Source of the DNA: an uncultured Candidatus Saccharibacteria bacterium
GTDB taxonomy: Bacteria; Patescibacteriota; Saccharimonadia; CAILAD01; BJGX01
Length of the DNA: 64,000 nucleotides
Direction: 5' to 3'
NCBI GenBank assembly: GCA_964481235.1
Contig: CAYZYH010000004.1
Location: 2,124-66,123 of the forward strand
Part shown: positions 7,791 to 64,000 of the stretch, piece after piece
How the letters are laid out: each line of letters opens with the position of its first letter
Numbering within the stretch: the first letter of the stretch is position 1
Notes under the pieces: model-generated
Seen by the model: the letters and a program-made list of their open reading frames with translations, nothing else
Databases searched by the model: none
Told to the model about the DNA's origin: nothing
Position numbers and translations under genes: made by a program

Positions 7791-7867
7791 AGGGGTGTAG
7801 CTCAGTTGGCTAGAGCGTTGGTCTCCAAAACCAAAGGCCGCGGGTTCGACTCCTGCCACCCCTGCCA
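7791..7867 (+). tRNA. tRNA-Trp (anticodon CCA)
   Basis: Acceptor AGGGGTG/CACCCCT. D-arm GCTCAGTTGGCTAGAGC. Anticodon stem TTGGT/ACCAA with loop CTCCAAA. T-arm GCGGG-TTCGACT-CCTGC. Encoded CCA. Confidence 0.8.
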
Positions 7868-9349
7868 AATTTTTGAATCAGGCTCATTTTGAGCCTTTTT
7901 GTTTTGTTCAGATAGCTCTCTAAAGGGGTTGTTGAGCACATAAGACAACTTTTTGTTGTTTAGTTCAACGTTCGAAATCATGTAACTCAGTAACTTCTGT
8001 CTAAGCTCGTTATTCGAACATCGAAACAGTTCTTCGGCTCGCTGTGCTAAGTCCAACAGGTATGAGGCGGTGACCTGGAAGCTCTTATTGTCTTTTGTAA
8101 GTTTCTTAAGTCTATCATTCAATATCTGCTGCTTGCCCTCTAGCTCATTTGCGATTTCGTCATGAAACTGCAGAGTAATACGCCTTTCTATACGGTCGTA
8201 ATAGAGTGTCTTCATTTTATCGTTGATGGCATCATATTCTTTGCGAGCTTGCTCAATGCTCTGCGTATAAAAGAGTTGCTGGTTTTCATGTCTATCTTTT
8301 AACATCGATATTACTTTTTCAACTATCTTCTCGGGCACACGTATGTTTGAAAGCTCCTTGTAAATATCGTGTAGAAGTAATGACTCTGCCGTGTTTGGAT
8401 TGCCGCAACTATGCTGACCTGTGCCGCTGCAACGTAGATATACCTGCTTACGACCGTAGTATGACGACACAGCACGCCCACAATTACCGCACTTTACTAT
8501 CTTTTTGAACGTGAACCAATGTGAATTATGTTTTGTACGGTCGTTACTTCGCTGCTCTTTTACCTCTTGGCATTTATTAAACAGCTCTCGGCTAATAAGT
8601 GGCTCATATTTGTGAGGGTAGCTTTTGGCTGCGTGAACCATGACGCCGTAGTAAAAGGTGTTATTTATTATTCGCTCCAAGTATGACTTGCCAACGGGTT
8701 TGTTGGATTTGACGGTGCCAGTAAAGCCATCTTTTCCGAGCTGAATTGCAATTGCGTCGTATGACATTCCCGTAGAACGTAGTTCAAAGGCTTTGATAAT
8801 AAACTTTGCTCTTACAGTATCAGGCTCTAGAGTAAACGTCTTATCATCTATTCGTCTTGTAATATAACCGATTGGGGGTCTGTGCACCCATATACCATCG
8901 CTAAGCATTTGCTCAAACCGACGCTTTACATTATCACTAATCGAGTCCGAATAGTATTTGGCCAAAGCCATACCAATACCAAGCCTAAACCAGTCTGCGG
9001 CAGAGGAATGCTGGGTTATTACTAGAGCGTCATGCGGGAAGTGAAGCTCGATTTTCCCTTGCTTTACTAACAACTGAAGTGCTTTTACTTCATCTTGGCT
9101 ACTATCTCTTGTGTAGCGGTCTATTTTATCGAACACAACCCAACAAGGGGCTTTCAAGTTTGTTATGTGCTCGACTAAAGCTGCGAACTTTTGTCTTTCT
9201 TCTTTGTGGGCACTTTCATCAAATTCGTGATATTCGTAATCTAGTTTATTTTCATCGGCATAATTAACTAGCCGACGTTTCTGAGCAGGCAAAGCTTGCC
9301 GCTGTTCTTCGTCTGATACTCTCGCAATTAGTATTAGTTTAGTTTCCAT
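7802..9349 (-). CDS. Large serine recombinase (phage-integrase type). Its 3' end overlaps tRNA-Trp in antisense
   Basis: N-terminal resolvase catalytic domain (KLILIARVSDEEQRQALPAQKRRL). Central recombinase domain. Zinc-ribbon CGNCGRAVSSYYGRKQVYLRCSG…HSCGN. The last 22 codons (…WQESNPRPLVLETNALAN) are the antisense of the tRNA-Trp 3' half. Confidence 0.8.
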   Translation of the reverse strand: METKLILIARVSDEEQRQALPAQKRRLVNYADENKLDYEYHEFDESAHKEERQKFAALVEHITNLKAPCWVVFDKIDRYTRDSSQDEVKALQLLVKQGKIELHFPHDALVITQHSSAADWFRLGIGMALAKYYSDSISDNVKRRFEQMLSDGIWVHRPPIGYITRRIDDKTFTLEPDTVRAKFIIKAFELRSTGMSYDAIAIQLGKDGFTGTVKSNKPVGKSYLERIINNTFYYGVMVHAAKSYPHKYEPLISRELFNKCQEVKEQRSNDRTKHNSHWFTFKKIVKCGNCGRAVSSYYGRKQVYLRCSGTGQHSCGNPNTAESLLLHDIYKELSNIRVPEKIVEKVISMLKDRHENQQLFYTQSIEQARKEYDAINDKMKTLYYDRIERRITLQFHDEIANELEGKQQILNDRLKKLTKDNKSFQVTASYLLDLAQRAEELFRCSNNELRQKLLSYMISNVELNNKKLSYVLNNPFRELSEQNKKAQNEPDSKIWQGWQESNPRPLVLETNALAN

Positions 9350-46853: not shown

Positions 46854-47426
46854 ATGAGTAATAAAGACAAACAAGCAGAGTTGCAAGAACTCTCTAATCA
46901 AATGCACGCCGCCGAAGATAGTTTGCGGCAAGTAGAGAAGTTACTAAAAAAAATGGGCTTAAGTGGCAAAGATTTACCTAAGCCCACCGATAGCGAACCT
47001 AAACCACTGGTTAGCGTACCGCTACAAAGTGATCAGTCGACTAGTTCGACCGAACCAAGTGGTAAGATCATAGAAGGTCATTTCGATGGCCAAAATATGA
47101 TTGGGCCCGATGGTAAGACATATCCTGTACCTGCCAACTACGCCAGTAAATCCAAACTAGTTGAAGGTGACACCCTAAAGCTGACTATTGCTGCAGATGG
47201 GTCTTTTATTTATAAACAAATTGGCCCAATAGAGCGCAAAAAACTTATTGCCAAACTTGGTCTTGAAAACGGTCAATATATTGCCCAAGTAGGTGATAAC
47301 CATTTTCGTGTATTATATGCCAGCGTTACATATTTCAAAGCTCAACCAGGTGATGAAGTTACAGTAGTTATACCTGCCCATGGCGAAGCTAATTGGGCGG
47401 CCATTGAAGCAGTTATTGGTGCTTAA
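46854..47426 (+). CDS. Hypothetical protein (190 aa)
   Basis: Intact ORF with an RBS. Occupies the position usually held by rpoB after rplL. Confidence 0.4.
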   Translation: MSNKDKQAELQELSNQMHAAEDSLRQVEKLLKKMGLSGKDLPKPTDSEPKPLVSVPLQSDQSTSSTEPSGKIIEGHFDGQNMIGPDGKTYPVPANYASKSKLVEGDTLKLTIAADGSFIYKQIGPIERKKLIAKLGLENGQYIAQVGDNHFRVLYASVTYFKAQPGDEVTVVIPAHGEANWAAIEAVIGA

Positions 47427-60147: not shown

Positions 60148-60182
60148 ATGTAAAACCCCCGCTAGCAAAGCTAGCGAGGGTT
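60148..60182 (-). terminator. Intrinsic terminator on the minus strand at the 3' end of the GC-rich noncoding transcript
   Basis: Minus strand reads cccucgcuagc-uuu-gcuagcggggg followed by UUUU. Confidence 0.65.
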
Positions 60183-60880
60183 GAGTGGGGTTGTGAGAGA
60201 GTTAGGTCAGGCTCTCCCGATGCCGTCTTCATACCACGCCTGCGAAGCGTAGACAGCTTTGACCGTACATCACTGGTTTTACCCAATGTGGAGCTCTACG
60301 CCCCAGATCTAGTATGAGATCTTTATCCCCAAATCGTCTTCTTGATCTCTGCGCTGGCCGGCGCTTCGATCATGTCTAGGTGGTTATCCTAGACTTCCTT
60401 TTTACAAACACTCTGCTTCCCACGCAGTGTGCTCTTAAGGAATGGCCCTACGACGATTTAGTTTCCCACGCTTTCCATTCAACAGGTATGTTGATTGGTC
60501 TCCAATAACAGGCGCGTGAGTGGTCTTGGCACCCAGCCTTGCGAGCTGAGAGCTGTTCCACCTGCCTTTTCCGACTTTCATGAGTTGGCGCTCAATCAGT
60601 CACTAACTACCTTTGCCCCACCAAGGACTCGGCCTCTACTATTTCGCGTTTGGTCCCCCAAAAGGGCGCTACGTAGGTAGAGTGGAGATCTGGATAAGGA
60701 CAATGTCCCAACCCTGCGTGCACCCGGAGACAGGTGCTTTACGCATATCGACTCTCACGAGTCTGTCGGGCACTCCACAGCCCTGTTGTAAATTACTAAA
60801 AGTGTTAATAAATTACAACAGAACTGCAGGGTGGTTAGTTAATTATTTTATAAGGTGCAAAACTTCTGTTTTGTTTCTAC
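60150..60880 (-). ncRNA. Large GC-rich structured noncoding RNA candidate (~730 nt). Possibly RNase P RNA with extra sequence, or an unclassified large ncRNA
   Basis: About 750 nt with no ORF ≥60 aa on the minus strand and GC well above the flanks. Minus-strand σ70-like promoter at 60916-60888 (ttgact-17-taagat) and intrinsic terminator at 60148-60182. Weak RNase P-like motifs in order on the minus strand (GAAAGUCGG…GGCAGG…GGGUGCCAAG…GAAAGCGUGGGAAAC…ACGCUUCG). No match to rRNA, tRNA-like or SRP signatures by eye. Confidence 0.35.
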
Positions 60881-62226: not shown

Positions 62227-62401
62227 GTATAAACTCCTTTTGAGGTACGACTGGTTTACAGTATTCACTCTAGTAGAATGATTATGCGATAATACCACTT
62301 AATCTTTACAAAATCAAGGATTGTTTACAAAATAAATAGCGCCTTTAGGATATTCCTAAAGGCGCAGTTTTTAGAGTAGATTATACTCTGGTTTGAAGGG
62401 A

Positions 62402-62644
62402 CTAACCCCAGCAGCTACCACAGCCACTTGCTTGCAAGTGGGTTAGGCGTAGAGCCAATTTTCTTGCCCGTCGATTCGCCTCATCCTCTTCAACAGTCTC
62501 ATCTGCTTCTAGGATTTCGTCGATTTCATCAAGCAATCTATCGGTCTCTGCCAAGTCGTGTGCCTCGTCTGAGCGTTTTGGGGTTTCAACTACTTCGGTA
62601 TCTTCTCGCGGGCGAGATTCGCGCCGCTTGAGCACACTACCCAC
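62402..62644 (-). CDS. Small acidic protein with Pup-like helix motif and C-terminal SGCGSCWG
   Basis: …AETDRLLDEIDEILEADETVEEDE… matches the Pup helix TDDLLDEIDDVLEENAEDF at about 12/20 positions, but ends …ASGCGSCWG instead of GGQ/GGE. Paralogous to the ORF at 63809-64000. Confidence 0.45.
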   Translation of the reverse strand: MGSVLKRRESRPREDTEVVETPKRSDEAHDLAETDRLLDEIDEILEADETVEEDEANRRARKLALRLTHLQASGCGSCWG

Positions 62645-62722
62645 TTGGATACCTCCTATCTCAAGCTGAGTTGAGTGGTATTATACATGGTTATGTATAA
62701 TAAATCAAACCCTCGTTAGCTA

Positions 62723-63226
62723 CTACGGGGTAGGTGAGAGGTCGTCTCCTAGGAGCATGTCGAACCCGCCACCGTCACCACCAAGCAGGCGTGCCAGTGG
62801 TGAGTCTACGTTCATCTTAGGGACGATACTCATGTCGTCCTCCAGGCTTCTGTACGCTCGACTTGCCGCAACATCTACGGCATAACCAGCAAAGTTGTTC
62901 ATCACCGAGGATGCCACAACAGCCTGGACCAGCTTGGGCGTGATCTCCAGCTCGAGGGTAACCTCTACGCGAAGCTCAACTCGGTATCCAAGAAGCTCTT
63001 GTACATAAAGCGTCTCAACAACAGTACTGCCTTCGGCCAGCTCATACTTGAGGTCGAGATGGTTCAGAGAGGGGATGAGTGGCGAGGTGACAGCCTGGAC
63101 AGCTTCCTTGAGCATGTCGTCCATCATGAACCCATCGTTTTCATCACCAATCATTTCTTCGGCAACAACAACCAAGTTGACGTTGACAGTTCCCTTCGAG
63201 AAGGGGTAACTCATAGCCAGTTGCAT
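62723..63226 (-). CDS. Hypothetical protein (167 aa), acidic C-terminal Gly/Asp-rich tail
   Basis: Intact ORF in the GC-rich island (…RVELRVEVTLELEITPKLVQAVVASSVMNNFAGYAVDV…GGDGGGFDMLLGDD). No family recognised. Confidence 0.4.
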   Translation of the reverse strand: MQLAMSYPFSKGTVNVNLVVVAEEMIGDENDGFMMDDMLKEAVQAVTSPLIPSLNHLDLKYELAEGSTVVETLYVQELLGYRVELRVEVTLELEITPKLVQAVVASSVMNNFAGYAVDVAASRAYRSLEDDMSIVPKMNVDSPLARLLGGDGGGFDMLLGDDLSPTP

Positions 63227-63479
63227 GTCTTGCTCCTTTACCTATCCAGGGCAGACAATTACCCACTTACCTGTAGTGCACTTTATTTATGCATACAAGA
63301 TAGGCTTACAAAACACAACATAATATGTTCTAAAAGCCTATCTCGCGCACATATTGAATTTTTAAAAATCATACAGTTTCGTCTTTTTTAGACTCATCAG
63401 GCTGAATACACATTCAGCGACTGCACCAGTTCTTTTCATGAGTGAACTGGCAATATCTCGTTGTTTTTACTATGAAAAT

Positions 63480-63821
63480 CTAGTTGGGCTCGGCAATTAC
63501 TGCGATAGATCTAAATATTAGGCCCGACATAACTGCAGCCAGAGCTACAATCATCATGGCCGAAACAAATAGATCTAGCACCAGTAGATCAGAATCTACC
63601 ACTCTTGGCTGGTAGATGGCTACTGCCGCAAAAGCCAACCAGTGGCTAGTACAGTAAGGGCAACTAAGCAGTTCACCAAACCATTCGTTATGGGCTTTTA
63701 CCCACAAGCGCAACGTCTTGGTTACCTTGGTCTTGGTAATAGTCATCGACATTGCCGAGACCGCCAAGGCTAGCATAACTACACTAACCACTTGAGTGGA
63801 GAGATCGTTCAATCCCAACAC
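63480..63821 (-). CDS. Small membrane protein with glutaredoxin-like CPYC motif (DUF1360-like)
   Basis: Three hydrophobic helices. …LLSCPYCTSHWLAF… sits between helices 1 and 2. Overlaps the upstream small Pup-like ORF by 13 nt. Confidence 0.4.
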   Translation of the reverse strand: MLGLNDLSTQVVSVVMLALAVSAMSMTITKTKVTKTLRLWVKAHNEWFGELLSCPYCTSHWLAFAAVAIYQPRVVDSDLLVLDLFVSAMMIVALAAVMSGLIFRSIAVIAEPN

Positions 63822-64000
63822 CCACAGCCACTACGCTTGGTGGGTTCAGTTGTCATTGTGCTGTTGAGAGCACGATCAATGGCATCAAGCGCACTATCAA
63901 CCTCAGGGACTTCCTCACGGACGTCCTCAAGGTCTTCAAATGTGCTATTGCTACCATTATCTCTAGGCTTACGGGTACGACGCGTGTCGAAAATCGACAT
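63809..64000 (-). CDS. Small acidic protein, paralog of 62402-62644 (Pup-like helix, C-terminal SGCGCWD). ATG at window edge
   Basis: …VPEVDSALDAIDRAL… and C-terminal …KRSGCGCWD share architecture and C-terminal motif with the other small ORF. N-terminus also Arg/Lys-rich. Confidence 0.4.
   Translation of the reverse strand: MSIFDTRRTRKPRDNGSNSTFEDLEDVREEVPEVDSALDAIDRALNSTMTTEPTKRSGCGCWD

Follow-up and report, generated by a model that had tools for sequence, protein, structure and literature searches.

The stretch of DNA analysed here (the window) is a 64,000-nt segment of contig CAYZYH010000004.1 from an uncultured Candidatus Saccharibacteria bacterium, and its last 1.6 kb carries four open reading frames (ORFs) on the minus strand that encode proteins of 63, 113, 167 and 80 amino acids (Table 1). 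A first-pass annotation of the window, made from the letters alone, had drawn attention to the 63-aa and 80-aa ORFs as two small acidic proteins with a basic N-terminus, an acidic helix and a Cys/Trp tail in common, and had offered a "repurposed Pup-like module" as one reading of them. Both are real genes that share these features, with tails of SGCGCWD (63 aa) and SGCGSCWG (80 aa), and the reading as a Pup-like module has gained ground: an ATPase of the ARC/Mpa type lies upstream, Pup is the top match of the family in the PDB and it is the sole Pfam match of the 80-aa ORF. The core of the locus is a three-gene module composed of an unfoldase of the ARC/Mpa type, a ~60-aa disordered protein (here the 63-aa protein) and a membrane protein of the DUF1360 family with three transmembrane (TM) segments that is translationally coupled to the small protein.

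The window ends within this module, and an 89.7-kb contig (L001), one of two found to hold the 80-aa protein by an exact-protein look-up, extends beyond position 64000 and is near-identical to the window (a single difference in 2.3 kb of comparison). In L001, AAGGAGA and the stop codon of the preceding gene stand just before the ATG at 64000, which shows this ATG to be the true start of the 63-aa gene; the gene for a 549-aa AAA+ ATPase lies 15 nt upstream of the 63-aa gene, just past the window (L001 6980-8629). A comparison can be made with a sister species (L003/L005, from the metagenome-assembled genome (MAG) GCA_964552475.1, "uncultured Candidatus Saccharibacteria"), the proteins of which are 83-90% identical to those of the window lineage. 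Against L003, the ratios of nonsynonymous to synonymous differences (pN/pS) are 0.12 for the ATPase, 0.18 for the 63-aa protein, 0.15 for DUF1360, 0.24 for the 167-aa protein and 0.15 for the 80-aa protein, and therefore all genes of the cluster are protein-coding and under purifying selection. The region is GC-rich, as had been noted: cluster genes have 47-53% GC with raised GC at third codon positions (GC3) against 35-45% in the four flanking genes measured, and the last two 1-kb segments reach 46-48% against ~39% for the whole window. The accompanying idea of a recent gain from a high-GC actinobacterial donor finds no support, since the closest relatives of the ATPase (41-90% identity) and all named homologs of the small protein belong to the Candidate Phyla Radiation (CPR); an ancient tie to Actinobacteria is possible.

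Table 1. Features of the small-protein cluster, in window positions
Feature	Position	Strand	Remarks
GC-rich 12-bp hairpin with flanking T-runs	62339..62365	.	bidirectional, intrinsic-terminator-like; probable 3' end of the cluster
80-aa divergent paralog	62402..62644	-	GTG start, GGAGG 7 nt upstream; tail CGSCWG is a CxxC variant
Sigma-70-like promoter match, TTGATT-17-TATAAT	62680..62708	-	10/12; upstream of the 80-aa gene; consensus match only
167-aa orphan protein	62723..63226	-	acidic Gly-rich C-terminal tail; upstream of the 80-aa gene
Type III hammerhead ribozyme	63371..63426	-	in the 253 nt that separate the DUF1360 and 167-aa genes
113-aa DUF1360 membrane protein	63480..63821	-	three hydrophobic segments; start overlaps the 63-aa gene by 13 nt
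63-aa protein	63809..64000	-	basic/Gly-rich N-terminus, helix ~35-48, C-terminal CGCWD

Pup and its ATPase Mpa/ARC are regarded as a speciality of the Actinobacteria with few occurrences in other phyla, and as tied to PafA/Dop and the proteasome. The ATPase encoded upstream of the 63-aa gene has as its best NCBIfam model TIGR03689 (pup_AAA), which aligns residues 10-525 to model positions 22-489 of 512 with 303 bits, below the equivalog cut-off of 505, and the Mpa chains in the PDB align to its residues 194-529 (Mpa 216-569 of 609). The N-terminal 230 residues on their own gave no PDB match with phmmer; a profile of the N-domain built from 10 orthologs was needed, and this finds as its best match the ARC-N OB domain of Rhodococcus (2wfw, E 0.019), with OB domains of Mpa/ARC accounting for five of its eight matches. 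Preceded by a heptad-like, coiled-coil-like helix that closes in a (P)PF motif (PPF/MPF), this domain completes an architecture of N-terminal coiled coil, OB domain and single AAA module. The pore loop reads K-[YF]-[IV]-G (K-Y-I-G in the window lineage) and the second loop I-S-S, resembling residues K340-F341-V342-G343 and V384-S385-S386 of Mpa (PMC8755798). Judged by these features, the neighbour is an unfoldase of the ARC/Mpa type. None of the 13 ATPase tails read carries the proteasome-docking motif GQYL/HbYX (as defined in PMC8755798); they end in LRQ followed by 2-9 residues (e.g., RQVAA, RQAKA, RQASV, RQSN), with a penultimate aromatic residue in none. Because the C-terminal docking motif is missing, the unfoldase is by all appearances not equipped for docking on the 20S proteasome. 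Full-length relatives of 41-58% identity occur in genomes labelled Saccharibacteria, Woesebacteria, Parcubacteria, Peribacteria, Uhrbacteria and the "Patescibacteria group".

Small ORFs of 56-82 aa follow the ATPase at 13 further species-level loci, nearly all with a recognisable Shine-Dalgarno (SD) sequence, and together with the window these were used to build a profile of the family. In a database of 5.8 billion sequences the profile retrieved 48 proteins of 58-84 aa, none with a Pfam domain or a functional name, those named by their source being called "hypothetical protein". A HMMER search of 1.84 billion cluster representatives gave 114 clusters at E<=1e-3 and 39 at E<=1e-10, a family size that counts clusters at 50% identity and is a lower bound; 113 of the 114 are 56-89 aa long, the exception (P0100) being a repetitive protein of 1173 aa. 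All named source organisms are CPR/Patescibacteria. Full-text literature searches on DUF1360, on Pup in CPR/Patescibacteria, on UBact and on Pup-like proteins with Mpa found no description of such a system, and the CxC-tailed family is undescribed. Its consensus reads MLQDRFRKKTKRPxGGGxSSLETxDIxxQVPQIDDVLAEVDKALxKAxxLExQxRxQxxCGC. For the 63-aa protein, AlphaFold2 (AF2) predicts one helix (residues 35-48) and coil for the remainder, as expected of a Pup-like disordered protein. When the 928 ORFs of the window are ranked with the family hidden Markov model (HMM), the 63-aa ORF heads the list with 63.9 bits and the 80-aa ORF is next with 20.3 bits (E 2e-5), the latter aligned near full length from the RP motif to the Cys tail; the likeness of the two is beyond chance. 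Third in this ranking is a 190-aa ORF (46854-47426, plus strand; 15.7 bits, E 4e-4), whose match spans an N-terminal KRAKIKRGNMSNKDKQAELQELSNQ...LRQVEKLLKK and is probably a chance coiled-coil or basic similarity.

At the C-terminus, C-x-C followed by 0-3 residues closes 129 of the 143 members (CGC, CTC, CRC, CVC, CGCW, CGCWG and CTCF are among the forms), and GGQ or GGE ends none of the 143, nor the 63-aa or 80-aa protein, just as the first-pass annotation had stated for the two. The S-G-C-G-x-C-W motif that it had proposed is indeed present in the window, but what holds family-wide is C-x-C plus 0-3 residues: the trailing Trp is specific to lineages in which the small gene ends in an overlap with the start codon of DUF1360, where GCGCW is MWVLV in the other frame. 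Both Cys codons alternate between TGT and TGC among loci and, in loci without gene overlap, the SD of the next gene, where recognisable, sits 3' of the small gene's stop codon. For these reasons a nucleotide-level cause of CxC (the overlap or the next gene's SD) was rejected, and the motif is, as its codons indicate, under selection at the protein level.

Several comparisons lead from this family to Pup, each of them below the threshold of the method. For the 80-aa ORF, Pup is the single Pfam match (E 0.0029, 18.9 bits, under the gathering threshold (GA) of 27) and the Pup C-terminal model TIGR03687 the best NCBIfam match (E 0.0084, 16.1 bits against a cut-off of 41.45); no other helix of the set is as Pup-like as the one in this ORF, in which AETDRLLDEIDEILEADETV matches Pup's EETDDLLDEIDDVLEENAED at 11/20 positions in a position-by-position count (~12/20 in the first-pass annotation). 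The 63-aa ORF has no Pfam match to Pup, and 5 of 44 family members match it, only at E<1. The family profile, compared with 177,635 distinct PDB sequences, places Pup at ranks 1 and 2 (E 0.4) and at four of its ten matches, always over ETDDLLDEIDDVLEEN, which is the Mpa-binding helix, and hhalign gives the family and Pup a probability of 55%. The family HMM scores Mycobacterium tuberculosis Pup (sequence verified against PDB 7px9_G) at 13.0 bits, a value reached by 0/5000 composition-matched shuffles (best 7.7), in an alignment that covers Pup 4-50, i.e., TKRGGGGG (vs KTKRPxGGG in the family) plus the helix. In the actinobacterial pair, Pup residues 21-51 form a helix on the coiled coil of Mpa and the disordered N-terminus enters the pore as a threader (PMC8755798). 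The parts conserved in the CPR family thus appear to be precisely the two by which Pup engages Mpa—the threader N-terminus and the helix. The 80-aa paralog would bridge Pup and the family, with 18.9 bits to the Pfam model of the one and 20.3 bits to the HMM of the other.

Set side by side, the two systems share a ~60-aa protein, disordered (by prediction in the CPR family) and encoded beside an ARC/Mpa-type ATPase in which a coiled coil and OB domain are combined with a pore loop of the form K-Ar-Hb-G. The N-termini are both basic and Gly-rich (QTKRGGGGG in Pup, KTKRPxGGG in the family), and the acidic helix reads DDLLDEIDDVLE in Pup, IDDVLAEVDKALE in the family and DRLLDEIDEILE in the 80-aa paralog. 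In contrast to Pup, the family has no GGQ/GGE and no counterpart of the C-terminal half with which Pup binds PafA/Dop, ends in CxC, has an obligatory DUF1360 membrane partner and scores under the Pfam and NCBIfam cut-offs; PafA/Dop and 20S genes do not recur in its neighbourhoods, and its ATPase lacks GQYL. By score, C-terminus and enzyme context the family therefore falls outside Pup, and it seems that the ligase-binding half and GGQ/E have been replaced by a variable spacer and a C-terminal Cys-x-Cys. The similarity could reflect homology or convergence. We think it probable that the ATPase-engaging part is homologous, or at least functionally equivalent, to that of Pup, because the adjacent gene is of the Pup-receptor type, which comes on top of the concordant sub-threshold matches.

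The third gene of the module encodes the DUF1360 protein, which passes PF07098 with 33 bits against a GA of 21; four other partners score 23.9-32.1 bits with the same model and nine match at E<=1e-5. In an alignment of 17 partner proteins GxLxxCxxCxSxW is invariant at the start of the second TM segment (TM2). A Lys/Arg-rich loop follows the first hydrophobic segment (TM1-TM2) in the DUF1360 partners, and by the positive-inside rule this would place the CxxC on the cytoplasmic face of the membrane. The coupling of the 63-aa gene to a membrane protein with a glutaredoxin-type CPYC had been recognised from the start, and both the overlap and the CPYC are there, but across the family the motif is C-[PSHYT]-[YFN]-C, and because the Pro is not conserved the glutaredoxin analogy is weak.

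Gene order ties the three genes together. The succession ATPase, small gene, DUF1360 is found in 14/14 genome loci with the small gene and in 6/6 further members, distant ones included, each flanked directly by an AAA ATPase gene on one side and a DUF1360-like gene on the other; the small gene and the DUF1360 gene often overlap, and DUF1360 is always downstream. The CPYC protein that the first-pass annotation had singled out as a neighbour worth following is therefore a conserved partner, in 20/20 members examined. Furthermore, the predicted cytoplasmic C-terminal tails of two DUF1360 proteins (L009 8041-8457 and L087 7221-7640; e.g., LLRAALEKAREKLIEQDTTIKELQQ) resemble the coiled-coil helix of their cognate ATPase (ELRAVLEAAKGKLAEQNELLQQL) to a degree reached by 0/2000 shuffles, the same comparison in L006 being not significant (132/2000). 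Such mimicry suggests that the membrane protein touches the N-domain of the ATPase directly.

These observations bear on a reading in which the small protein acts in solution as a regulator or pseudo-substrate of the unfoldase, with CxC as a redox- or metal-sensing switch and DUF1360 as a client or an unrelated co-expressed protein. All evidence for Pup-like engagement applies to it equally, and no separate DUF1360 gene stands beside that of the 80-aa paralog. CxC motifs are redox-active or metal-binding elsewhere, as in the CXC of CCS domain 3, the CPC of Mia40 and CGC peptides. What makes a purely soluble role unlikely is the strict order of small gene and DUF1360 in 20/20 cases, often with overlap, together with the CxxC that is co-invariant at the predicted cytoplasmic face and the DUF1360 tails that mimic the ATPase coiled coil and so point to a physical ternary complex.

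Among 132 neighbouring ORFs at 15 loci, DUF1360 is the sole recurrent Pfam family, and no Pup ligase, proteasome, radical-SAM, YcaO or peptidase gene recurs. PafA/Dop and proteasome genes are likewise absent from the annotated loci L001-L003 and L085-L090, and there is no Pup ligase among the PafA/Dop-sized ORFs of the window, the ORFs that this search covered; the earlier statement that none of these genes is nearby is correct. The same neighbourhoods decide the case of the two ORFs as precursors of ribosomally synthesized and post-translationally modified peptides (RiPPs), with a helix as leader and a Cys/Trp core, for which the first-pass annotation had envisaged enzyme partners beyond position 64000. 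Small size, a helical N-terminal part and C-terminal Cys and Trp are what such precursors would show. Beyond 64000 lies the ATPase instead, and no radical-SAM, YcaO or other modifying enzyme, leader peptidase, transporter or exporter recurs in the 15 neighbourhoods, and L001-L003 and L085-L090 have none either. What is conserved next to the small gene is an unfoldase and a small membrane protein, and a RiPP "core" common to the family would come down to C-x-C, its middle residue variable, the invariant part of the protein being this three-residue motif plus the N-terminus and the helix. We rejected the RiPP reading, which we consider extremely unlikely.

Taking these lines together, we propose that the small protein serves as an adaptor, or as a built-in degron, of Pup-like type and docks an unfoldase that acts without a proteasome to DUF1360 through a CxC·CxxC bridge, with no pupylation involved, and we put the odds of this at about even (roughly 0.5). 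In the proposed mechanism, the acidic amphipathic helix of the small protein would pack on the coiled coil of the ATPase as Pup does on Mpa, while its CxC tail would join the cytoplasm-facing CxxC of DUF1360 through a shared metal ion or a disulfide. DUF1360 would thereby bear a ready-made, non-ligated Pup-like handle that brings the hexameric unfoldase to the membrane, where the small protein's own N-terminus would enter the pore. The membrane complex, or anything else bound by the Cys tail, would in this way be remodelled or extracted without a proteasome.

There are partial precedents for this proposal. In Hsp33, CxC and CxxC of one protein bind one metal (zinc) in a redox-sensitive manner, and domain 3 of CCS has a CXC motif. 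Hsp33 thus provides a precedent for a metal site made by pairing CxC with CxxC, with the difference that in Hsp33 and CCS domain 3 the motifs are intramolecular, whereas here they sit on two separately encoded proteins and the metal site is putative. In Corynebacteria, ARC takes apart pupylated ferritin without a 20S proteasome, a precedent for an ARC-type unfoldase acting on Pup-marked complexes in its absence; the mark there is made by covalent pupylation through PafA, and the handle here appears to be non-ligated and Cys-dependent. UBact has a Gln/Glu C-terminus and is clustered with homologs of Dop/PafA and of proteasome subunits. It was reportedly described by Lehmann et al. in 2017 from Nitrospirae, Verrucomicrobia and some candidate phyla, as a tag resembling Pup. 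UBact resembles the present family as a Pup-like small protein outside Actinobacteria near an Mpa homolog, and differs in that the family here ends in CxC and has no recurrent Dop/PafA/proteasome neighbours. What would be new in the Pup/ARC-like pair of CPR is the end by which it attaches, which differs from that of Pup, along with the membrane partner and neighbourhoods free of pupylation machinery.

Several points weigh against the proposed adaptor. Every similarity to Pup lies under the family thresholds (Pfam 18.9 bits against a GA of 27, PDB E 0.4, hhalign 55%), and because a short acidic helix is what underlies the likeness, it may have arisen by convergence. A CxC·CxxC bridge is deduced purely from co-invariance and predicted topology, and the proposed binding of the helix to the coiled coil is likewise a deduction from sequence. 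The CxxC may serve an unrelated purpose if DUF1360 proteins outside the system also keep it. The module is sporadic (114 clusters) and several copies of the triad stand in mobile-element- or phage-like surroundings: L085 is flanked by restriction-modification genes and a serine recombinase, L087 by Thy1 and Phage_30_3, L088 by a faint HNH match and runs of small co-directional ORFs, and L089 by Amidase_2, Thg1 and ADP_ribosyl_GH. Its role could therefore be conflict-related rather than one in quality control.

If the triad were a conflict module of a mobile element or phage, serving for instance in defence, in abortive infection or in the control of lysis, its DUF1360 protein would act as a holin-like effector that the unfoldase restrains or triggers via the Pup-like adaptor. 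The sporadic distribution and variable neighbourhoods just described would fit such a module, as would the atypical GC and GC3 of the cluster, the match of the DUF1360 partner to the phage family phrog_781 and the predicted N-out/C-in topology of three TM segments with a charged tail, which is reminiscent of class I holins. The cluster also contains a hammerhead ribozyme, and bacterial hammerheads are often phage-associated. We nevertheless regard this role as quite unlikely, given that several loci lie among housekeeping genes, that a single peptide pattern found no match in IMG/VR viral contigs and that PADLOC matched the generic AAA domain only. This reading addresses what the module is for, and the molecular mechanism could be the same. 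A known defence system was rejected as an explanation: the PADLOC matches (IetA, TRIP13) score below pup_AAA, PADLOC matches neither the small proteins nor DUF1360 nor the 167-aa protein, and PHROGs assigns the DUF1360 partner to phrog_781, a family without an assigned function, and to nothing else. Viral origin was rejected as well, since IMG/VR viral contigs hold no relatives of the small-protein family (by that single pattern) or of the 167-aa protein and a tblastn search with the DUF1360 protein found no match in GenBank phages.

The position of the CxC admits one further reading, in which the small protein is a covalent, Cys-based tag attached to its targets through its C-terminal Cys residues (by a disulfide or other thiol chemistry), possibly with DUF1360 as catalyst, and delivering them to the unfoldase, as a ligase-free analogue of pupylation. 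CxC sits at the end by which Pup is conjugated, and the N-terminus and helix correspond to the end by which Pup is delivered (PMC8755798); the invariant Cys..Cys.S-[H]-W of DUF1360 at the membrane interface could be catalytic. Such chemistry is without precedent, however, the cytoplasm is reducing, a three-TM protein of ~110 aa is small for an enzyme and no known conjugation-type enzyme is found among the 15 neighbourhoods, so we judge a covalent tag to be very unlikely. Another idea, in our view rather doubtful, is that CPR bacteria possess a ligase-free, Cys-based counterpart of Pup, that is, a Pup-homologous protein bound reversibly through CxC (by metal or redox chemistry) to a membrane protein or to clients, handing its partner to a proteasome-free ARC-type unfoldase. 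If this were true, the part of Pup that engages Mpa would predate the chemistry of pupylation or be separable from it, and the CPR system could be a relic or the product of exchange between Actinobacteria and their Saccharibacteria epibionts.

Across CPR/Patescibacteria, then, an ATPase of the Pup-receptor type occurs with a Pup-like partner and without a ligase neighbour, a ligation site or a proteasome-docking motif. If the proposed docking of the unfoldase to DUF1360 is correct, the recognition half of a protein-tagging system can be reused with other attachment chemistry, DUF1360, a widespread domain of unknown function, gains its first functional context, and an unannotated family of very small genomes gains a testable role. 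The module would also offer a simple three-protein system for the targeting of AAA+ unfoldases to membranes.

In the window lineage the core triad appears to have gained an add-on of its own, made up of the ribozyme, the 167-aa gene and the paralog. The 80-aa protein, with one homolog in the sister species (88% identity) and no further relatives in JGI metagenomes, is a divergent paralog limited to this lineage. It follows the acidic-tailed 167-aa gene, as had been observed before. The 167-aa protein (GC3 0.60) has a single homolog as well, again in the sister species (83% identity), and no relatives in IMG/VR or JGI metagenomes; Pfam, NCBIfam, PADLOC and PHROGs gave no family that was significant or at a curated cut-off, its AF2 model is poor (predicted local distance difference test, pLDDT, 51) and Foldseek against the PDB returned nothing at E<=0.001. 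The hammerhead scores 48.6 bits with RF00008 against a GA of 48.5 over the full model (1-54), and its core (CUGAUGAG and CGAAAC) and GUC site are intact. A counterpart lies in the sister species (L003 2525-2579, plus strand, 49.2 bits), the ribozyme stretch being nearly invariant between the two species, and ten other related loci scanned at the gathering threshold have none. Cleavage by the ribozyme would separate the core triad from the 167-aa/80-aa pair on the transcript. The probable role of the 80-aa paralog, jointly with the 167-aa orphan, is to compete for the ATPase of the triad or to direct it to other targets. Immediately upstream of the hammerhead is a 7-bp hairpin (CCAGTTC...GAACTGG).

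Relatives of the ATPase also occur in other gene settings. A Saccharibacteria MAG (CAYQNM01) has two paralogous ARC-like ATPases (L013 and L014), and the small CxC gene and DUF1360 follow that of L013 only; the ATPase relatives of L018, L019 and L020 have neither partner. In eight related loci, all on the plus strand (L085 5004-5300, L086 4963-5259, L087 5025-5315, also L007, L009, L011, L012 and L018), a conserved protein of ~97 aa (GFVVGSD...KLVVASVRGGLELARGLNVHFAIGT...) is encoded directly upstream of the ATPase and overlaps its start. This protein, which the window lineage lacks, matches nothing in Pfam, PADLOC or PHROGs; it may belong to the module as a fourth component. Its "GGQS" ending was rejected as a true Pup-like C-terminus, being the product of the ATPase's SD (AGGAGG) and the ATGA start/stop overlap.

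Two features elsewhere in the window stand apart from the small-protein cluster. Far from it, a large serine recombinase gene with Resolvase and Recombinase domains (7802-9349, minus strand) adjoins tRNA-Trp (7791-7867) and may mark the edge of an integrated element. Between an HD-domain gene and a NUDIX gene lies a GC-rich stretch of ~700 nt without ORFs (~60150-60880, minus strand), with a sigma-70-like promoter identified by eye (TTGACT-17-TAAGAT) and a 3' end formed by a hairpin and then a short U-run. No Rfam match was found for it even at E<=1, and in the sister species the stretch is absent, the HD-domain and NUDIX genes being 75 bp apart there. Its predicted RNA fold has z = -7.97 against shuffles, and it is a candidate for a large structured non-coding RNA or a ribozyme-like insertion.

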